This document shows, one piece after another, positions 11,448-22,150 of a stretch of DNA of 64,000 nt. This stretch comes from an uncultured archaeon (GTDB lineage: Archaea > Asgardarchaeota > Hermodarchaeia > Hermodarchaeales > Hermodarchaeaceae). The notes below the pieces were generated by a model. That model ran no database searches. It saw only the letters and a program-made list of their open reading frames with translations, and had not been told where the DNA came from. Each line of letters opens with the position of its first letter. Positions within the stretch are counted from its first letter, which is position 1. Position numbers and translations under genes: made by a program. Location: assembly GCA_964347045.1 (NCBI GenBank), contig CAYFXC010000002.1, forward strand, positions 1 through 64,000, written 5' to 3'.

Positions 11448-12230
11448 TTATGATTCGTTTGAGAAATATTTTAAAAACGGAACCAGCAACAACCCAAGAA
11501 GAAATACACTGTTAATGAATGGAATATAGAACATGGTCCAAAGAGCAAATCCAGACCAAAAAGCTAAAGTAAACAAGAGACTTGTCGCGACAAAGAGCGG
11601 TATCTGTTGAGTATTGCTGTATCGAAATTTCATGCATAGAATCAACACTGAGGACATAACAAGTCCTGTAAGAAACCATCCAATAAAATTAGAAAAGGGA
11701 ACACCATAATAGATTCCAGGAGTGAACCAAATCCAAATACCCAGATTAACAAGTATGGGATCGATAGTTAGATCAATAATTACTAAGAGGAGTGCACTAA
11801 GGAGTACAATCTTCCATGGTTTTTGAACATATTTAGTAGCAAATGTAAATGTCCCTAATAAGAGTGGAATGAAAGCAAATGGAACAACCCATGGAACTAG
11901 CCCAAATAGTTTGATTCCCAATGAATCGGAGTAGAAGAAAGAACCATATGGGATTCCTGTTAAAACTCCAAAGCTCTCAATGATAAGGATTAGAAAAGCG
12001 AGGATAAAGACAACAATAATGGTGTTTTGGGAACCGGCCCATCTGTAAAAGAAGTACAAAGAAGGTAAGATTGTGGTAATAATGAATAAATTGAACAGAT
12101 TAATTGGAATTAATGGATGGAGAACGAAGAAAATATAACTCAAGACATATGGACCTAGAATTACTAGAAGAAAAATGAGCAACCGATGTGTACCACTGTT
12201 GGCGCGGGATTCCCGAAGGTTTGCCGTCAT
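11448..12230 (-). CDS. cruF: Carotenoid hydratase, CruF/bisanhydrobacterioruberin hydratase family
   Basis: IESFGVLTGIPYGSFFYS, LGIKLFGLVP, DLTIDPILV, YYGVPFSNFIGW. TAATG overlap with lyeJ fixes the start at 12230. Confidence 0.88.
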   Translation of the reverse strand: MTANLRESRANSGTHRLLIFLLVILGPYVLSYIFFVLHPLIPINLFNLFIITTILPSLYFFYRWAGSQNTIIVVFILAFLILIIESFGVLTGIPYGSFFYSDSLGIKLFGLVPWVVPFAFIPLLLGTFTFATKYVQKPWKIVLLSALLLVIIDLTIDPILVNLGIWIWFTPGIYYGVPFSNFIGWFLTGLVMSSVLILCMKFRYSNTQQIPLFVATSLLFTLAFWSGFALWTMFYIPFINSVFLLGLLLVPFLKYFSNES

Positions 12231-13105
12231 TAGGTAATCACAATCTTTGGTATAGTTATTGTAATGAAGAGGATTAAACCAAAAACGGCGTTCCAGAATG
12301 GAAAAAGCCAATATATTCTGTTGATATTTTCTGCCTGACGAACTAACAGGTAGAGGGGCAAGACGGGATAGATGAACATGAGAAGATTCCATGGAGCGTT
12401 CCAAGGAATAAGAATTACAAGGATGATTGCAAAGATAAACCAGAAAGTAAGGCAAAGAATTAGAGAAGGGATGGCTCCAATAAAGACGGCGGTTGTTGTT
12501 ATATTAGCCTGTCTATCTGCATCAATGTCTGGAATAGCCGAAAAGAGATGCATTGCGGAAGTCCACATGAATGCCGCAAAGAGGGGTAATATTGGTGGAA
12601 TGATGAAGCGCAGTTGATAGAAAGCAAGAATTGCTGGGATTACATAGAGAAAATTAGACATAAAATCGAAGAATGGGCGAGCCTTAAACCTGATAGGTTT
12701 CGAACTATATAGAAACGACAATAATAGGAAGATACCAAAGAGTGCGATGGCAATAATATCGGGTTGAAATATCATTAAGATTAAGCCAAATACAAAAGAG
12801 ATGACTATGAGGGCAAGCAAATTCCGTTTATCTTTGGCAGTCACACGATACTCTTTATCGTCTTTTTTTGGATTGAAGATATCGGTATCTTCATCATAGT
12901 AATCGTTCACACCATATAGGAAAACATTAGCGGGGAACATGAAGAAAAAGAGTTGAAGCACAAAAAAGGGACTAAGGAATTGCGTGAGTGTAGTGATTCC
13001 AATTGCATACCCGATTAGGTATGTACCTCCTAAATAGAGCCAAAATCGTGGTCGAGAAATTCTAACCGCGAGCCTAGCAATGCCGATCAAATTTATCATC
13101 TTCAT
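12230..13105 (-). CDS. lyeJ: UbiA-family prenyltransferase, lycopene elongase LyeJ/CrtEb type
   Basis: SRPRFWLYLGG, YGVNDYYDEDTDIFNPKK, PIRFKARPFFD, MHLFSAIPDIDAD; lies between crtD and cruF. Confidence 0.88.
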   Translation of the reverse strand: MKMINLIGIARLAVRISRPRFWLYLGGTYLIGYAIGITTLTQFLSPFFVLQLFFFMFPANVFLYGVNDYYDEDTDIFNPKKDDKEYRVTAKDKRNLLALIVISFVFGLILMIFQPDIIAIALFGIFLLLSFLYSSKPIRFKARPFFDFMSNFLYVIPAILAFYQLRFIIPPILPLFAAFMWTSAMHLFSAIPDIDADRQANITTTAVFIGAIPSLILCLTFWFIFAIILVILIPWNAPWNLLMFIYPVLPLYLLVRQAENINRIYWLFPFWNAVFGLILFITITIPKIVIT

Positions 13106-14580
13106 TTATCATAGTGTCTATTGATTTGGTCAGTCACAATCTTCGAAGAGACAAGAGCCATTGGAACACCGATCCCTGGATGTGTGTATTGACCAGTGTA
13201 ATAGAGATTGCGTACCTTCTTACTTCGGTGTCGTGGACGAAAGAATGCGGATTGACGGAAGGTGTGAGTAAGACCCACAGCGGTTCCCTTAAATGCGTGA
13301 TAGTCCTGAGTGAAATCATTTAGTGAAAAGATTCGCTTCACACTTATGAAATCACGGAAAGACTCTCCAATAAGTTTCTCCATATGACTAATAATTTTTT
13401 CAAGATAAGTATCTCGAATCGTAGGCGAATCCTCAATCCCAGGTGATATGGGAACCGTTATGAAGATATTCTCCTTCCCTTTTGGAGCTACTAAAGAATC
13501 GAATCTTGAAGGGCAACACACATAATAAGCAGGTTTATCAGGCCATGCCGGATTCTCAAAAATCTGATCGAAATGCTGGACCCAATCATATTCTAAAAAG
13601 ACATTATGGTGAGTTAGCTGATCTAACTTAAGATCGACCCCTAAGTAAACTACAAAAGCGGATGGAGCGATAATCTTTTTCTTCCAATATTTTTCTGAAT
13701 ACGTTTGATATTCCTTATCAAGCAACTCTAGCTCACTGTAAGGATAATCAGCATTGACAACAATCAGATCTGCATCGATTGTTCCTTGTGTCGTTTGAAC
13801 CTGATAGGCCATTCGATTCTTAATTTCTATGCGAGAGGCTTCAATTCCAAATCGAATTTCAGCCCCCTGTTGTTTTGCTAATTTCATCAAACTTTCAGGA
13901 ATCTTTCCTATTCCACCTCGGGGGTACCAAACGCCCAGATTATAATCGATATGCGAAATGATCGAATACATTGCGGGGGTGTTCTTTGGATTGCCACCCA
14001 AAAACACAATGGGGTACTCGAGGATTTTTCGCGCACGATCACTCTTGAAAAATCTTTGCACATATTCATCGATGTTGCTCAAAATATGTAATTTTCGTCC
14101 TGCTTTCATCAAGGAGGGACTAAACATCGACCAGAAACTATCTAAATCTTTATACATGATGCCCTCCATCATGAAGTCATAGGTTTCTTTTGCTTTCAAC
14201 AAATACTGTGCTAACTTTTTGGCTCCACCTTTTTCGAAACCCTCAAAGGTGTGCAAATTGGGCTCAAGATCTGCTGTGATCTCGACAATATCATTGGCTC
14301 CAAAAAAAATCCGATAATTAGGATCAAGACGGATCAATTCATAATAATCTGAAACAGACTTTCCAAATTCGTTAAAGAAGTTCTCAAAGATTTCGGGCAT
14401 CAAATACCAAGAGGGCCCCATATCGAATACAAAACCTTCTGTTTCCCAAACCCGAGCACGACCTCCCGGCTCCAAATTTTGTTCAATCACTTCAACCTCG
14501 TAGCCTTCTTTGGCAAGCAGTGCAGCGGCAGATAAACCACCCACACCCGCACCAATAATCACTACATTCTGTGGTTTCAT
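13102..14580 (-). CDS. crtD: Phytoene desaturase-family enzyme, probable carotenoid 3,4-desaturase CrtD
   Basis: IGAGVGGL Rossmann motif, FDMGPSWYLMP, HPGIGVPM; first gene of the crtD-lyeJ-cruF order known from haloarchaea. Confidence 0.8.
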   Translation of the reverse strand: MKPQNVVIIGAGVGGLSAAALLAKEGYEVEVIEQNLEPGGRARVWETEGFVFDMGPSWYLMPEIFENFFNEFGKSVSDYYELIRLDPNYRIFFGANDIVEITADLEPNLHTFEGFEKGGAKKLAQYLLKAKETYDFMMEGIMYKDLDSFWSMFSPSLMKAGRKLHILSNIDEYVQRFFKSDRARKILEYPIVFLGGNPKNTPAMYSIISHIDYNLGVWYPRGGIGKIPESLMKLAKQQGAEIRFGIEASRIEIKNRMAYQVQTTQGTIDADLIVVNADYPYSELELLDKEYQTYSEKYWKKKIIAPSAFVVYLGVDLKLDQLTHHNVFLEYDWVQHFDQIFENPAWPDKPAYYVCCPSRFDSLVAPKGKENIFITVPISPGIEDSPTIRDTYLEKIISHMEKLIGESFRDFISVKRIFSLNDFTQDYHAFKGTAVGLTHTFRQSAFFRPRHRSKKVRNLYYTGQYTHPGIGVPMALVSSKIVTDQINRHYDK

Positions 14581-14778
14581 AGGGAATTTCCCTCTACTTA
14601 GGGTGATGTCTCTACTTACAATATTTAATGATTATCTGTTAATTCAAATGCTTCTTGTATTTTAAACAACAAAACAAATTTATTAAATAATTATTTTAGG
14701 AAAAGAGAACTTTTTAAAAGGAAAACCCTTCACCTAAAGAGAAGTGATATTCGTTAAATATGTAACTAGGGCGTTATT

Positions 14779-15735
14779 ATGATGATTAGGGGAGAAAGCT
14801 ATCATCTAGATGTTATTCCATCGCAAATCCGAATCAATGATAAGCGTACACAAAGTGACCTCAACCGCGCCTATGATTACTGCATGAAATTATTCAATAA
14901 GTATGCAAAATCCTTCTCATTCGCTGCGCGATATCTCGAACCTCAACAGCGCCGAAGTATTGCTGCACTCTATGGATTTTGCCGACTCGCGGACGACTTT
15001 GTAGACGAAATAAATCTCACACCCAAACAAATTGACGAAGAACTTAATGTTTTGGCTAAGATTATTACTCGACTTAGTAATGGTGAAACCTTTGATCACC
15101 CGGTATATCATGCCTTTGGTGACACTTTGATGAAATACGATATCCCTGTTAGATATCTCTATGAATTACTTGAAGGCGTCCGCATGGACATCTACCGACA
15201 AGAAATACACACACAAGAAGAGCTTGAGCTCTATTGTTTCCGAGTAGCCTCAACAGTTGGACTATCAATGTGCCACATCTGGCGAGCGATACACCCAGAG
15301 ACCCTCCAAAGAGCCGCAGAACTGGGAATAGCTATGCAGCAAACTAATATTCTACGAGATATTGCGGAAGACTATAACAAGGGACGAATTTACATACCAG
15401 CTGAGACACGAAAAAAATTCCGGATTCGCCTAGAAGATTTTGAAACCCGAAAAATAACTTCAAACTTCAAATACTTGTTAAAACACGAAATAGCGAATGC
15501 TCGAGCAAAGTATGCTTTAGCAGAAATCGGTTTACGAGATCTTCCACCTGCCGCATCGTTCACTGTTAAGGTTGCTGCCCGTATCTATGCAAATATTCTG
15601 AATGAAATTGAGAAGATAGATTACCAAATTTTCAAAAAACGAGTTTATGTGCCAAAATGGAAAAAGTTCTGGATTTCTTTCCAATGTCGTCGCGAATATC
15701 TTCATGATATGAAGGAATTTGTTCTTCACCCATAA
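14779..15735 (+). CDS. crtB: Phytoene synthase
   Basis: AKSFSFA, LYGFCRLADDFVD, YCFRVASTVG, QQTNILRDIAEDYNKGRIYIP. Confidence 0.93.
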   Translation: MMIRGESYHLDVIPSQIRINDKRTQSDLNRAYDYCMKLFNKYAKSFSFAARYLEPQQRRSIAALYGFCRLADDFVDEINLTPKQIDEELNVLAKIITRLSNGETFDHPVYHAFGDTLMKYDIPVRYLYELLEGVRMDIYRQEIHTQEELELYCFRVASTVGLSMCHIWRAIHPETLQRAAELGIAMQQTNILRDIAEDYNKGRIYIPAETRKKFRIRLEDFETRKITSNFKYLLKHEIANARAKYALAEIGLRDLPPAASFTVKVAARIYANILNEIEKIDYQIFKKRVYVPKWKKFWISFQCRREYLHDMKEFVLHP

Positions 15736-15780
15736 TTTTTCACAGCTATGAGAATACTAATCACTTAAGGTGAAAAGAGA

Positions 15781-17289
15781 ATGAACGATTCAAATTCACC
15801 AGAAGTAATTATTATAGGCGGAGGTTTTGGGGGCCTTTCAGCAGCCGTGAGAATTCAAGCTGCAGGATACCAAGTCACTCTCTTAGAGAAACGTCACCAG
15901 CTTGGAGGTCGAGCAGGAGTAATTGAACGAAAGGGATTCCGGTTTGATACCGGACCCACAATCATTACCCCGCCCTTTGTGGTTGAAGACATTTTCCGTG
16001 ATGCAGGACGAGATCCAGCGGATTATATAGAACTGGTTTCAATCCACCCACACTACCGCCTCCACTATGCGGATGGCACCCATTTTGATATCGGTACCTT
16101 CGAGGAAGTCGCAGAGCAAATCAAACAGCTAAATCCGCCTGATTTGGAAGGATACCGAAAATGGCTCAAAATTCTTGAACCTATTTATAAACTGGGATTT
16201 GAAAAATTTGCTATGACACCCTTTGAAAGCCTATGGAGCATGGTGAAGATTATTCCCCCTGCTATTCGCCTTAAATCTTACAAGAGCGTATATGGACTTG
16301 TTGCCAGTTACATGAAGAATGAGAAGCTTCGTATGGCATTCTCATTTGTGCCACTCTTTATTGGCGGAAATCCGTTCACTACTACTAGCGTCTACTCACT
16401 AATAGTCTATCTTGAAAACAAGTATGGCATGCTTTGGGTCCGGGGAGGAACCCATCGATTTGTCGAAGCATTAGAAAAATTATTCGTAGAACTTGGAGGA
16501 ACTATCAAAATAAATTCTGAAGTAACAAAAATTAAAATTGATGAAAAAAAACGAATGGTAACCGGAGTCATCACCGCAAACGGGGATCACTATCCAGCGG
16601 ATATTGTAGTGAGTAATGCCGATGTTGCAATGACTTACATGAAACTAATCGATAGACAATTTCGTCGAAAAAATAACGATAAGCGATTCAAAAAAGCCAA
16701 GTATAGTATGAGCCTTTTCATGGTATATTTCGGGACGAAAAAGAAATACCCCGAAATACCTCATCACAACGTCATTTTTGGCCCTCGCTATAAGGAACTA
16801 ATCAAAGATATTTTTGACCGTCATATTCTCCCTGATGACTTTTCCATTTATTTGCATGTTCCAAGTAGGACTGATCCAGAATTAGCACCGCCCGGTTGTG
16901 AAACTTTCTATGCTTGCGTTCCTGTGACCCACCAAGATTCGGGAATCAATTGGGAAGAAATGAAAGAACCCTTTCGAGACCGAGTTTTACAATATCTCAA
17001 TGACCATTACCTTCCCGATCTTTTAAACAACCTTGAAGTATGTGAAATCTTTACTCCACAGGATTTTGAACACGAGCTTAATGCTTACAAAGGCAACGCA
17101 TTTCAATTACAACCGCTCATGACCCAATCAGGGTGGTTCCGTCCACATAATCGATCTCGTGATATCAAGGGATTATATATTGTAGGTGCCGGAACCCATC
17201 CAGGTGCCGGAGTACCGAGCGTTTTACTCAGTGGAAAAATAACATCAGAACTTATTTTTCAGGATAATAAGAAACCAGCTCAAGAATAG
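15781..17289 (+). CDS. crtI: Phytoene desaturase
   Basis: IGGGFGGL, FDTGPTIIT, VGAGTHPGAGVP; directly follows crtB. Confidence 0.92.
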   Translation: MNDSNSPEVIIIGGGFGGLSAAVRIQAAGYQVTLLEKRHQLGGRAGVIERKGFRFDTGPTIITPPFVVEDIFRDAGRDPADYIELVSIHPHYRLHYADGTHFDIGTFEEVAEQIKQLNPPDLEGYRKWLKILEPIYKLGFEKFAMTPFESLWSMVKIIPPAIRLKSYKSVYGLVASYMKNEKLRMAFSFVPLFIGGNPFTTTSVYSLIVYLENKYGMLWVRGGTHRFVEALEKLFVELGGTIKINSEVTKIKIDEKKRMVTGVITANGDHYPADIVVSNADVAMTYMKLIDRQFRRKNNDKRFKKAKYSMSLFMVYFGTKKKYPEIPHHNVIFGPRYKELIKDIFDRHILPDDFSIYLHVPSRTDPELAPPGCETFYACVPVTHQDSGINWEEMKEPFRDRVLQYLNDHYLPDLLNNLEVCEIFTPQDFEHELNAYKGNAFQLQPLMTQSGWFRPHNRSRDIKGLYIVGAGTHPGAGVPSVLLSGKITSELIFQDNKKPAQE

Positions 17290-17300
17290 TCTTACGCCAT

Positions 17301-17795
17301 CTATTCTGGCGATCCAAGAGCAATCGTTTCGACAATATTCACCAACTTAACAATATTCAAAGGCTTCTCAGGACTAAGAGCTTGCCAACCCTCTGATGTC
17401 TTCAATCCATGTGCGGCAAGAAAGTTAGGTGATAATTGCCGAGAACCGACTTTTGCCATATGGATAATCGCTTTTTCCCTCTCACCAGGTTCATTCACTA
17501 TTTCAAGTTCCCCTCGGAAGACTACAAAACAATATTGATGTAAATCAGGTTTGTAGGTTTCAATTTCAACCGCAACGCGATTGTCGTGTTCAATCAGTTT
17601 CATTTTCTTTCCATAACGCGTGAAATGAAAGTAGAGAGTTCCATCAATATACGCATATTGAAAAGGAGACATATAGGGATATTCATCTCCCCGAAAAGCA
17701 ATTCGACATATCACCTGATTATGTAATAGCGCCTCAATCAATTTCCTTTCCATTTGAGGTAATTTCACTATAGAAATCTTATTCACCCCATACAT
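17301..17795 (-). CDS. Pyridoxamine 5'-phosphate oxidase-like split-barrel flavin-binding protein (NimA-like)
   Basis: CRIAF..EYPYMSP, LYFHFT..GKKM, VVFRG. The start may be GTG near 17768. Confidence 0.82.
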   Translation of the reverse strand: MYGVNKISIVKLPQMERKLIEALLHNQVICRIAFRGDEYPYMSPFQYAYIDGTLYFHFTRYGKKMKLIEHDNRVAVEIETYKPDLHQYCFVVFRGELEIVNEPGEREKAIIHMAKVGSRQLSPNFLAAHGLKTSEGWQALSPEKPLNIVKLVNIVETIALGSPE

Positions 17796-17852
17796 ACTTT
17801 AGGATGCCTTCTCAAATATATTCGATAGGGATTCATCAACAAGGGTAAGAAA

Positions 17853-19247
17853 TTGAGTAAATTATATAAAAAAACTCTTTTCATCTTTCGTCGTGATCTT
17901 CGACTAGTTGATAACACTGGATTAATTCGCGCTTTAGAAGATTCTAACCAAGTCCTGCCAAGCTTTTTCCTTGATCCCAGACTTCTGAAGCAATCTAGCC
18001 CACATCTGAATGCCATCCAATTCATGGCTGAAGCACTACAAGACCTAGATTTACGACTTCAACACCAAAACAGCCAACTGTTATTCTCTTCAGGTATACC
18101 TGAAAAAATGATTTTCAAACTATTGAAAACCTATGAAATTGATGCAGTGTTTATTAACCGTGATTATTCACCCTTCAGTCGTCAAAGAGATGCGCAAATT
18201 AGAAATGTATGTAAGAAGGCAAAGGTGGCATTTCACCAATTCGCGGATTCTCTGCTTAATGAACCAGAAATGATCCTTAAGGCCAATAATGAACCCTATA
18301 AAGTATTTACTCCCTATTTCAGAAAAGCCTTAGAACTCCCCATAAGTCTTCCAAAAGAAAATTCCTTCAAAAATTATGTAAAAATCAGACCAGGAAGCCA
18401 AAAGAAGGTAACAGTCCCATTCAAGCATATAAAAACCAAAAACAACAAATCACTTCTCGTTCAAGGTTCAAGAACTGCAGCTCTTGCTATTCTCTCAAAT
18501 TTACAAGACTTTAGGCAATATAAAATAACCAGAGATTTTCCTAATCAACATGGCACCACCCGCCTTTCAGCGTATATTAAATTTGGAAGTTGCTCTGTGC
18601 GCGAAGTATATAATGCCATCAAAAAGCAGCTTGGAATAAATCATCCACTTATTCGCCAACTCTATTGGCGAGATTTCTACACGCATATCGCGTTCCATTA
18701 TCCGCATGTGTTTGAGGGAGCCTTTAAACCCCGATATAATAAGATTCAATGGAACAATGATAAGATGCTATTTGAAACATGGCGCAAAGGAATGACAGGA
18801 TTCCCCATTGTAGATGCGGGTATTCGTGAACTCAATGAAACGGGTTGGATGCATAATCGTGTCCGGATGATTGTAGCATCATTCTTAACCAAAGATCTAC
18901 ATATCAATTGGCAGTGGGGAGAACGGTATTTTGCCAGCAAACTTGTCGATTATGATCCCGCAGTCAACAATGGAAACTGGCAATGGGCTGCATCAACAGG
19001 AGTTGACGCACAACCATATTTTCGAATCTTTAATCCATGGCTACAACAAATAAAGTATGATGCAGATTGTGAATATATCAAAAAATGGATTCCTGATTTG
19101 TCCAAACTTGAACCCAAAATCATTCACACATGGCATAAACCAACTAAATGGGATTCAAAAATTAAGTATCCAAAACCGGTAGTTGATCATAAAGTCGAAA
19201 GTCAATATTCTAAGGAACTATATGCAGCAACATTTTCAGCCAAATGA
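17853..19247 (+). CDS. phrB: Class I CPD DNA photolyase
   Basis: FRRDLRLVDN, YKVFTPYF, LYWRDFY, GFPIVDAG, WMHNRVRMIVASFL, NNGNWQW, FRIFNP. Confidence 0.96.
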   Translation: MSKLYKKTLFIFRRDLRLVDNTGLIRALEDSNQVLPSFFLDPRLLKQSSPHLNAIQFMAEALQDLDLRLQHQNSQLLFSSGIPEKMIFKLLKTYEIDAVFINRDYSPFSRQRDAQIRNVCKKAKVAFHQFADSLLNEPEMILKANNEPYKVFTPYFRKALELPISLPKENSFKNYVKIRPGSQKKVTVPFKHIKTKNNKSLLVQGSRTAALAILSNLQDFRQYKITRDFPNQHGTTRLSAYIKFGSCSVREVYNAIKKQLGINHPLIRQLYWRDFYTHIAFHYPHVFEGAFKPRYNKIQWNNDKMLFETWRKGMTGFPIVDAGIRELNETGWMHNRVRMIVASFLTKDLHINWQWGERYFASKLVDYDPAVNNGNWQWAASTGVDAQPYFRIFNPWLQQIKYDADCEYIKKWIPDLSKLEPKIIHTWHKPTKWDSKIKYPKPVVDHKVESQYSKELYAATFSAK

Positions 19248-19703
19248 TATTGAGTAACTGCCAATTGATCCCCAATTTTCAGTTTTATCGTTCTCAGATT
19301 TTTTTGCACAAAAATGAATTATAACTTGTGCCTTATCAAACATGCCGTTTTTTTCAAAAAATTCACGATCTCCATATCGGATGCTCTCTAATACGAGAGG
19401 TAACTCCCGACGAAAGATGCCTTCGCGGAATCGTCGTGAACCCAAACCTCGACTAACTTGACAGTAAACATTCAAAATACATTCATCCGCTTTTTGGACC
19501 AATTCAGCAAAAATCTCATCTCGCATTAAACGTGAAAACAAACCCCTAACCTGCTTTTTATCATATTCTGGTCCCACTGTAAGGAAAAGTTCCCCCGTTC
19601 GATCTGAATGAGTAAGAGTATATCTTCGTGGAATTAGAACATCAAGTGATTGGGGGAAAGGGAGGAAACGAACCTTGAGTTTATTTGGATTCAGTCTCGT
19701 CAT
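19236..19703 (-). CDS. Stay-green (SGR, Mg-dechelatase family) homolog
   Basis: PRRYTLTHSDRTGELFLTVG, RDEIFAE, IFRRELPLVLESIRYGD, VIIHF, ENWG: the characteristic Staygreen blocks. Confidence 0.9.
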   Translation of the reverse strand: MTRLNPNKLKVRFLPFPQSLDVLIPRRYTLTHSDRTGELFLTVGPEYDKKQVRGLFSRLMRDEIFAELVQKADECILNVYCQVSRGLGSRRFREGIFRRELPLVLESIRYGDREFFEKNGMFDKAQVIIHFCAKKSENDKTENWGSIGSYSISFG

Positions 19704-19731
19704 TATCGTTTCGCTGAATTGTAAATGGTTG

Positions 19732-20196
19732 TTATAGTTTTAATTCGGTAATTTTGGTGATTACTTCGTCGACATGACCGGGAACTCGGACCTGTGGCCA
19801 TATATGTCTAATTATACCGTTGCGATCAATAAGGAAGGTTGTTCGTTTTGCTGAACCAGTTTCAGGTTTCAATACATCATAGAGTTTGACAACGGTTAGC
19901 TCCTTATCTGCAATAAGTGGAAACTGCAGAGCGTTTTTTTCCTTAAACCCGGCTTGGCGTTTCACGCTATCAGTGCTTACCCCAACGACTTTCACCCCCA
20001 TACCCGTCAACCGAACCATATTATCTCTAAATGAGCATGCTTCCTTTGTACAACTGGGAGTACCAGCTCGGGGGTAAAAATAGAGCACTACGACGTTTCC
20101 TCTTAGTTGGCTCAGGGTAAGTTCAGAACCTTCATCTGTGGGTTGAGTAAAATCCGGAGCAGCTTCTCCAATTTTTGGCATTGTCACATCTATCAC
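19732..20196 (-). CDS. bcp: BCP/PrxQ peroxiredoxin
   Basis: VVLYFYPRAGTPSCTKEACSFRD (CxxxxC). The true start is probably 20187 or 20181. Confidence 0.93.
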   Translation of the reverse strand: MIDVTMPKIGEAAPDFTQPTDEGSELTLSQLRGNVVVLYFYPRAGTPSCTKEACSFRDNMVRLTGMGVKVVGVSTDSVKRQAGFKEKNALQFPLIADKELTVVKLYDVLKPETGSAKRTTFLIDRNGIIRHIWPQVRVPGHVDEVITKITELKL

Positions 20197-20248
20197 CTCG
20201 AAGGATACTAATAGGAATTCACTATAAGAATTTTAGATAAAGGGTAAA

Positions 20249-20276
20249 GTAATGAGGGGAATTTCCCCCTCATTAC
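20249..20276 (-). terminator. Stem-loop downstream of the fasciclin gene
   Basis: 11-bp inverted repeat GTAATGAGGGG/CCCCTCATTAC, followed on the minus strand by TTTACCCTTT. Confidence 0.6.
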
Positions 20277-20294
20277 AAGTCAATTCTACAGTTC

Positions 20295-20696
20295 TTATTT
20301 GGGCAAAATAACCTTGTCAATGACATGGATCACGCCGTTCTCAGCTTCTATGTCAGCTTTGATTACGTGAGCTTCATCGATTTTAACACCATCTGAGGCG
20401 TCAATTTGGATACTTTGACCTTGGACCGTTTTGATTTCGTCTTTACTAATGACGTCTGCGGCTTTGTATTTTCCTGCTACAACATGGTAGAGGAGTATAG
20501 CCTTCAGCTTTTCTGTATCTTTTAGAAGAGCTTCAACTGTGCCTTCAGGAAGAGCAGCAAAAGCATCGTCAGTAGGGGCAAATACCGTAAAAGGTCCATC
20601 ATTAGATAAGGTTTCGGCTAAACCAGCCGCGGTTGCAGCCGTTAACAGAGTGTCAAACTGGCCTGCATCTTTTGCAATTTTTACTATATTTTCCAT
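20295..20696 (-). CDS. Single FAS1/fasciclin domain protein without a signal peptide
   Basis: [33 protein letters not shown]. Confidence 0.95.
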
Positions 20697-20940: not shown

Positions 20941-21579
20941 TTATGCCTTCCGTACGCGGAAGAGGACAATTAACCCAAAGATGATTTTTGTGATCACATC
21001 TAAAGCCGCATAGAATATCGCAGCAATGAATGTTGTAATTAGACCGAATCCAGTTGGGGCAAGAATGAATACCAACGGAAAGAGTGACCAGAAAATTATA
21101 ATGAACCACATAAGTTGTGAATTTATTCCTTCTCTAGGTATACCCCTGAATAACGTGATTAAAAGAGCAATGTAGGCAATAGAACTGAACCCAAAGAACC
21201 ACCACCGCTCGATACCTGTAATAAATGCAGCTAGGAATCCACAAAACATCACAAGCATCGTCAAAAGAGGAATTTTCGCGAGATTGATTGGTTGTGTCTG
21301 TTTTAAAATAACTGCAACAGAAACTGTTAGTAAACTACAGCTACCCATATAAAAGAGCCAGCGGCTCCAGTAAATCAGTTCTCCAAAAGTTGAGGCGATA
21401 ACTGCAAACCCGAGCGCCATAAGAACATAAGAAATTGTAGTAACGAAAGCAACAAGGATATCAACCAATGATAGAAATTCGTCAGCTCCAGATTGGAATG
21501 AGAACACAGTAAACATAATCGTTGCGATACCAAAGATTGCAGCCATAATCCAAAAAACGAGTAATTCTATTCCAGCCAT
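20941..21579 (-). CDS. Microbial rhodopsin, schizorhodopsin-like (212 aa)
   Basis: 7 TM helices; helix C YWSRWLFYMGSC (Phe at the BR D85 position, Cys at T90), helix F FWSLFP, helix G LDVITK with the Schiff-base Lys198. Confidence 0.9.
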   Translation of the reverse strand: MAGIELLVFWIMAAIFGIATIMFTVFSFQSGADEFLSLVDILVAFVTTISYVLMALGFAVIASTFGELIYWSRWLFYMGSCSLLTVSVAVILKQTQPINLAKIPLLTMLVMFCGFLAAFITGIERWWFFGFSSIAYIALLITLFRGIPREGINSQLMWFIIIFWSLFPLVFILAPTGFGLITTFIAAIFYAALDVITKIIFGLIVLFRVRKA

Positions 21580-21685: not shown

Positions 21686-22150
21686 CTAGCCATGAAATTC
21701 AGAGATTTTTCTTAGGACTGCATTCTCCTTTTCTTCTGAAAACGTTCCAGTATCTCGCCATAGGATATTGCCATCACAATCGACTAAAAAGAGATAAATC
21801 GTCTCCTCAGTGGGAATATCTAATGCCTGGGTAAATTCATCTTTGTTGATATACAGGGTAATCGTTCGAGCTCGCATTTCTTTATCGCGAATTCCGCTCC
21901 TCATTCCGCTATCAATCATCCATTGTGAAAGTACGTTAAATTTCCGTAACGTTGGCAATTCATAGAATTGGATTTGTGGATGTTTAGCAACTAGCTTCAG
22001 AAGAAAGGGAACCCAAGTTTCAATTGGAGCCACTTGCCACCGCTGAAATGCCACTACAAGAAAATTCAACTTTCCTTCCAATTTATCGGGAATGGTGTGT
22101 TGAACACCATTGAGGTCCTTTCCAGATACTTGAGGAAATTTCATTGACAA
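21686..22150 (-). CDS. ATP10-like / thioredoxin-fold protein
   Basis: FPQVSGKDLNG, LVVAF, FYELP, IDSGMRSGI, FLVDCDGNILW resemble prokaryotic ATP10-like proteins; no CxxC. Confidence 0.7.
   Translation of the reverse strand: MSMKFPQVSGKDLNGVQHTIPDKLEGKLNFLVVAFQRWQVAPIETWVPFLLKLVAKHPQIQFYELPTLRKFNVLSQWMIDSGMRSGIRDKEMRARTITLYINKDEFTQALDIPTEETIYLFLVDCDGNILWRDTGTFSEEKENAVLRKISEFHG

Follow-up and report, generated by a model that had tools for sequence, protein, structure and literature searches.

The 64,000-nucleotide stretch of Asgard DNA analyzed here (the window) encodes, at 20941–21579 on the minus strand, a rhodopsin of the schizorhodopsin (SzR) type; the relatives studied so far are small light-driven proteins that carry protons into the cell. 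The E81-dependent archaeal SzR pumps carry an Asp or Glu at the position of bacteriorhodopsin (BR) D96, and this protein has a serine, S87. The question raised by the locus is whether a protein altered in this way still carries protons inward and, if so, which residue takes over on the cytoplasmic side.

An intact schizorhodopsin gene

The gene (P0001) is an open reading frame with an ATG start encoding 212 residues, and the product matched the Bac_rhodopsin family (PF01036, 1.7e-20). When all PDB sequences were searched with HMMER, the closest were SzR4 (7e4g, E 5.1e-32), with which the protein shares 35% identity, and AntR (9or2, 2.5e-28), while the next rhodopsins were far weaker (2e-12, SRII). 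An AlphaFold2 model built from an alignment of 79 family sequences had a pLDDT of 95.2 and a pTM of 0.91, with seven helices at residues 4–29, 34–55, 72–91, 97–119, 125–144, 151–173, and 183–209. The top Foldseek matches of the model were the chains of 7e4g, with TM 0.90/0.95 and an rmsd of 1.2–1.6 Å. In the tree, the protein falls inside the archaeal SzR clades with support of 98/91. All 13 of the residues invariant in the 79-sequence alignment are kept, including K198, and the protein has the Phe, Ser, and Cys at BR D85, T89, and T90 (F76, S80, and C81) and the single Asp counterion at BR D212 (D194) that mark the SzR/AntR family. Members of the family are small, at ~200 residues, and the cytoplasmic end of their TM6 is short. 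The E-F loop is 3 residues longer than that of SzR4, and helix F of the model begins at 151, 17 residues ahead of P168; the cytoplasmic end of TM6 has 13 residues before the Pro in SzR4 and ~21 in other type-1 rhodopsins (PMC8040798). From its homology and fold, the gene is best explained as coding for an intact schizorhodopsin that presumably functions with retinal.

Helix C of the protein reads R73-W-L-F76-Y-M-G-S80-C81-S-L-L-T-V-S87, and the BR 85/89/96 positions are taken by F76, S80, and S87 (F-S-S). Verification of the codons bore out the helix C motif, the D40, S87, D194, and K198 assignments, and all coordinates of the initial annotation. Ser87 (codon TCT, 21319–21321, minus strand) is the equivalent of SzR4 E81, MtSzR D87, and BR D96, and the helix B residue Asp40 (GAT, 21460–21462, minus strand) is the equivalent of SzR4 N34, MtSzR D40, and BR T46. 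The HMMER alignment with SzR4 runs without gaps from helix B through helix C, placing S87 on E81 and D40 on N34. In the SzR4 structure, E81 is hydrogen-bonded to N34 and T195 (PMC8040798), while in MtSzR two waters link D40, the equivalent of SzR4 N34, to the acceptor D87 (bioRxiv 10.1101/2025.10.20.683367). Homology with these two pairs supports the proposal made from the sequence that D40 would lie opposite position 87. T195, which completes the SzR4 triad, corresponds to V205 in the window protein and to Ile in most members of its clade.

The rest of the transport pathway is conserved. The helix C core of R73, F76, S80, and C81 (21337–21363, minus strand) corresponds to SzR4 R67, F70, S74, and C75, and on helix G (20986–21000, minus strand) both the single counterion D194 (GAT, 20998–21000; SzR4 D184) and the Schiff-base lysine K198 (AAA, 20986–20988; SzR4 K188) are invariant in the family alignment. 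R73, W74, Y77, and C81 are likewise unchanged throughout the 79 aligned sequences. Comparison with the published mutant data (PMC8040798, PMC7148096) revealed that the residues whose mutation stops or greatly weakens pumping by SzR1 or SzR4 are all kept (SzR4 R67, S74, C75, L78, D184, and K188, which are R73, S80, C81, L84, D194, and K198 in the window protein, with F76 present too), the sole exception being E81. The E81Q mutation ends transport in both SzR1 and SzR4 (PMC8040798, PMC7148096), which carry Asn, not Asp, at position 40. By the AlphaFold2 helix limits, D40 is the only carboxylate within the cytoplasmic half of the helices of the window protein, with D33, E34, and E150 found at loop ends.

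An F-S-S clade under purifying selection, limited to a single genus

Among 5.8 billion proteins searched, 38 cluster representatives had 70–86% identity to the window protein, and all 38 were F-S-S with D40 (one with E40); those that were named came from Asgard MAGs. With an added profile search, the clade reached 40 non-redundant proteins, having Ser87 in 40/40, D40 in 39/40, and E40 in 1/40. When 400 genomes of the phylum were examined, this form turned up in a single genus only, where it was present as one copy in each of 11 of the 15 species genomes, and it was found in none of the four genomes of the sister genus. The schizorhodopsin is the only PF01036 match in the genomes of the genus that carry it, and the family's genomes yielded no heliorhodopsin.

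Across ten species of the genus, the Ser87 codon is TCT, TCA, TCG, or TCC, and Asp40 is GAT in every one. The recurrence of the same F-S-S/D40 combination in 40 proteins and the use of four serine codons argue that the variant is due neither to chance nor to sequencing error. For ten full-length orthologues, the median dN/dS was 0.054, at a dS of ~2 that is near saturation, indicative of strong purifying selection. Clade-wide occurrence, dN/dS, and the codon turnover at Ser87 together mark the variant as real, old, and selected.

Searchable literature yielded no description or characterization of an archaeal FSS/Asp40 clade and no paper pairing "schizorhodopsin" with FSS. Loss of the acidic residue at the E81 position is itself already known, as 58 of 63 SzRs were reported with a D or E there and 5 without (PMC7148096).

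The clade differs from other archaeal SzRs at further positions. It has S37 (elsewhere Phe), A44 (elsewhere Ser), L206 (elsewhere Ser or Thr), and N153, as well as M108, A118, A191, and V195 around the retinal; M12 and P104 were also counted as clade-specific. At position 201, which is K198+3 and the BR F219 position, the clade has Tyr versus Phe in almost all SzRs. Multiple substitutions in the cytoplasmic half suggest that the polar lining has been rearranged beyond the removal of one residue, and the changes at S37, A44, N153, Y201, and L206 suggest that the kinetics or function of the clade may differ. Tyr201 (TAT or TAC) is present in 39 of the 40 clade members and in the nine other full-length orthologues of the genus, and the window protein alone has Phe201 (TTT, 20977–20979, minus strand). 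The comparison of orthologues indicates that the hydroxyl at 201 was gained on the clade stem and lost again in the window species.

Carboxylates at positions 40 and 87 across the family

We scored 170 non-redundant family sequences at both position 40 and position 87, and denote each form by its helix C motif followed by its position 40 residue. The F-S-S clade comprises FSS/D (39) and FSS/E (1), and the other archaeal forms lacking a helix C carboxylate are FSN/D (6) and FSN/E (7). Archaeal forms that have the helix C carboxylate are FSD/H (39), FSD/E (17), FAD/E (14), FSD/N (8), FSD/D (3), and FSE/N (7), among which a helix B carboxylate is common alongside the helix C Asp (FSD/E, FAD/E, and FSD/D). 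The bacterial AntR-like sequences include FSE/A (7) and FSE/S (3), plus 19 that have no carboxylate at 87 and Ala or Pro at 40 (FST, FSS, GSS, GSV, GST, GSH, VST, CSS, and FSH). The F-S-E motif initially taken as typical of schizorhodopsins thus occurs (17/170), but F-S-D and F-A-D are commoner (81/170), and the Asn expected at position 40 is found in some SzRs but is His, Glu, Asp, or Ala in others. None of the 151 archaeal-type sequences lacks a carboxylate at both 40 and 87, and the partner residue is polar; Ser or Asn at 87 is always accompanied by Asp or Glu at 40 (53/53 archaeal sequences).

Two other pairings in the sample may be recorded. The commonest archaeal form is F-S-D with His40 (39/170; P0056, P0063, P0254, and others), and its His40/Asp87 pair recalls the H48/D220 acceptor of NsXeR. 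The F-S-N sequences with Asp or Glu40 (P0044, P0047–P0055) are an exact mirror of SzR4 N34/E81, with Asp or Glu on helix B and Asn on helix C; their labels are Bathyarchaeota, apart from one RefSeq entry labeled "[Eubacterium] cellulosolvens" that probably reflects mis-binning or gene transfer. No characterization of the F-S-N clade was found in the literature.

The nearest outgroups of the F-S-S clade in the tree are of the FSD/D and FSD/H types, and the clade with 98/91 support is an unresolved polytomy of FSD/D (P0039, P0280), FSD/H (P0041, P0042), FSN, and FSS. On the simplest reading, the ancestor carried Asp87 together with a polar position 40, the latter probably Asp as in MtSzR. With both D40 and D87 in the nearest relatives and in MtSzR, loss of the helix C Asp most likely took place when D40 was already there. 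The swap of a carboxylate from helix C to helix B that had been proposed for this protein is therefore correct as to the residues now present, Asp on B and Ser on C, but the history appears to be the retention of one of two carboxylates and not a relocation.

Parsimony on the archaeal tree gave two changes in the state of the helix C carboxylate, amounting to one to two independent losses; one shared origin for FSS and FSN was not rejected (p-AU 0.30). With one to two independent pairs, a sign test is impossible. A rate argument for co-variation was also set aside as underpowered, since the FSS+FSN subtree showed 0 changes of the position 40 charge against an expectation of ~1 (P ~0.36). The further suggestion that a helix B Asp co-varies with loss of the helix C carboxylate was not supported statistically, the test being underpowered among the archaea and failing family-wide, where the 19 bacterial-clade sequences lack both.

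A candidate inward pump with a helix B carboxylate

For the F-S-S protein, we favor an inward H+ pump in which D40 would be the sole cytoplasmic negative charge and S87 its partner, a reading that we consider to have an even chance of being right. In the published "untrapped release" mechanism of SzR4 and MtSzR, a buried charge at the helix B/C interface below the cytoplasmic surface draws the Schiff-base proton cytoplasmward. In the F-S-S protein, this buried charge would be supplied by the helix B Asp40 alone, and the helix C Ser87 would serve as its hydrogen bond partner. We infer that D40 would be deprotonated and within hydrogen bond distance of S87, that it would replace the helix C acceptor, and that transport would be inward. 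The D40/S87 pair would then be the reverse of BR T46/D96, with its hydroxyl on helix B and carboxyl on helix C, and of SzR4 N34/E81, where an amide faces the carboxyl.

The closest known system is MtSzR of Methanoculleus taiwanensis, an archaeal-clade SzR studied by cryo-EM that has the same numbering, a helix B D40, a helix C F-S-x, a hydrophobic gate, and a single counterion (bioRxiv 10.1101/2025.10.20.683367); the nearest non-FSS sequences, P0039 and P0280, are of this FSD/D type. MtSzR differs in that the D87 acceptor is retained and water-bridged to D40, whereas the window protein has Ser87 and D40 alone. The Lokiarchaeial F-S-E proteins SzR4 (7e4g) and SzR1 share the transport-pathway R, F, S, C, L, D, and K with the window protein, but the E81/N34/T195 triad of SzR4 is S87/D40/V205 in the window protein, with I205 in most of the clade.

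Precedents that favor D40 as the acceptor-side residue come from AntR, whose E81Q variant pumps nearly as the wild type and for which the helix B residue D30 was proposed as an alternative acceptor, and from the inward pump NsXeR, where the helix B residue H48 works with D220 (PMC8040798). These systems differ from the window protein in several respects. AntR D30 is set roughly one helical turn closer to the cytoplasm than position 40, where AntR has Ala, and the Y193 and R84 partners of AntR are missing from the window protein. The xenorhodopsins have ~18% identity to the window protein and carry the carboxylate on helix G. In BR, as in NsXeR and as proposed here, a helix B residue and a cytoplasmic carboxylate govern how protons pass between Schiff base and cytoplasm, but the BR pair is the proton donor for outward pumping and its carboxylate is on helix C.

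Inward pumping by the F-S-S protein is further favored by homology and fold, the carboxylate kept at 40 or 87 in every archaeal-type sequence, the conserved pump residues, the purifying selection, its standing as the sole rhodopsin of the genome, and the transducer search described below. Against it stand the lethality of E81Q to pumping in SzR1 and SzR4, the only archaeal SzRs tested, though both carry Asn40, and the absence of statistical support for co-variation.

The AntR results also bear on whether an inward pump of this family needs any cytoplasmic carboxylate. In the bacterial clade, the helix C carboxylate has been lost repeatedly without any helix B carboxylate, in agreement with the activity of AntR E81Q, and a carboxylate at 40/87 may thus be dispensable altogether. 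AntR belongs to the same family as the window protein, with structures available (PDB 9or2/9ork/9ot0), and in a recent preprint (bioRxiv 10.1101/2025.10.15.682728) an AntR with a GSS motif, in which the helix C carboxylate is naturally absent, is cited as characterized. The F-S-S protein could by analogy release its proton through water and hydroxyls (S87 and, in most of the clade, Y201), with D40 a structural inheritance, and the hydroxyls that the clade has gained at 87 and 201 are in keeping with such a route. We nonetheless consider this unlikely. AntR and GSS_AntR are of the bacterial clade, while the window protein groups with the archaeal SzRs, in which E81Q stopped pumping in both proteins tested. 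The Y193/R84/D30 network of AntR is absent, G202 occupying the Y193 position, and the window protein itself has F201 and not Tyr. The constancy of Asp or Glu at 40 in all 53 archaeal sequences without a helix C carboxylate also speaks against a merely inherited D40.

Gene neighborhood and transducers

The opsin gene is flanked at 11448–20696 by genes associated with light and oxidative stress, whose Pfam matches include CruF-like, UbiA/LyeJ-like, CrtD-like, CrtB, CrtI, and PNPOx-like proteins, a photolyase, a Staygreen protein, a Bcp peroxiredoxin, and a fasciclin protein. An NmrA/DUF2867 reductase is also among the neighbors, and subsets of the same gene set flank orthologous SzRs in other assemblies. 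The carotenoid genes at 11448–17289 (Caroten_synth/CruF-like, UbiA of LyeJ-like type, two to three CrtI/CrtD-type desaturases, and CrtB) look, at the Pfam level, like the haloarchaeal C50 pathway. The Staygreen homologue (19236–19703, minus strand; Mg-dechelatase family, PF12638, 1.7e-41) is kept beside Bcp and fasciclin in four relatives (L034, L003, L006, and L012), and no chlorophyll genes were seen. In the island of an orthologous opsin (P0033; JGI 3300042731, an 82,212-base contig), a 351-residue protein with B12-binding_2 and B12-binding domains is encoded ~2.3 kb downstream of the opsin, between photolyase/PNPOx genes and FixCX plus carotenoid genes; it may be a light-responsive regulator resembling CarH.

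Directly upstream of the opsin gene and on the same strand is a gene for a 154-residue ATP10-like protein (21686–22150, minus strand; PF05176, 6.5e-07). It is the most constant neighbor, adjoining the SzR gene in 8 of 10 loci of the genus, and within the family it is present in 10 of 11 SzR-positive and 0 of 8 SzR-negative genomes. The orthologue in the closest relative (L036, G106:C64:17681-18136) has one in-frame TAG in the matched stretch. The ATP10-like protein was considered as a dedicated opsin partner or transducer and rejected, as homologues occur without a rhodopsin in another Asgard lineage and others are found in unrelated contexts. On a Thorarchaeota-type contig (L043), the gene is flanked by a photolyase and a DUF2867 reductase and no rhodopsin is present, which suggests that it is part of the island and not specific to the opsin.

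The recurrence of this island around the sole rhodopsin of the genome, together with the co-occurring ATP10-like gene and the loss of a residue essential for pumping in SzR1 and SzR4, would also fit a slow-cycling photosensor or regulator that signals light to the photolyase, carotenoid, and peroxiredoxin genes. We regard such a sensor as quite improbable, and the stronger form of the idea, that the clade is the first schizorhodopsin-type photosensor and reports light to the island, possibly through the ATP10-like protein, as more doubtful again. Neither Htr-type (MCP, PF00015) nor ASRT (PF07100) transducers were found in the 88.9%-complete genome or among the neighboring genes, every pump residue other than E81 is kept, and the ATP10-like gene shares its photolyase/DUF2867 context with a lineage without the rhodopsin. 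Clustering with light-stress genes suits a pump equally, and we know of no schizorhodopsin that acts as a sensor.

Retinal supply

A search of the 88.9%-complete genome for the retinal-forming enzymes Blh (PF15461) and RPE65 (PF03055) found neither, a result that counts against the inward pump with D40. Retinal synthesis is likewise missing from other Asgard hosts of rhodopsins, for which scavenging has been suggested (PMC12137139). Matches to lycopene cyclase (PF05834) were non-specific and uninformative on β-carotene synthesis; control genomes including E. coli match as well, and the hits are probably geranylgeranyl-reductase-like flavoproteins.

The missing enzyme and the many clade-specific substitutions around the retinal and within the cytoplasmic half (M12, P104, M108, A118, A191, V195, and N153) might instead reflect changed transport (another ion, a passive light-gated leak, or another direction) or a retinal-less relic, but this is the least probable reading, because F76 and the single counterion D194 form the inward-pump arrangement (PMC8040798), the family-invariant residues including K198 are in place, the dN/dS of 0.05 excludes decay, and retinal may be scavenged as in the other Asgard hosts.

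Implications

Neither the physiological role of inward proton pumps nor the way they release protons is settled, and the current model of the archaeal SzRs leans on a helix C carboxylate whose neutralization is fatal to SzR1 and SzR4. The F-S-S clade is a natural test of whether a negative charge at the B/C interface is enough for release, whether a specific acceptor is required, or whether release can do without a carboxylate, and F201 in the window protein versus Tyr in the rest of the clade offers a ready natural comparison. As the sole rhodopsin of an Asgard genus, encoded amid light-protection genes, the protein also bears on how these relatives of the eukaryotes cope with light.
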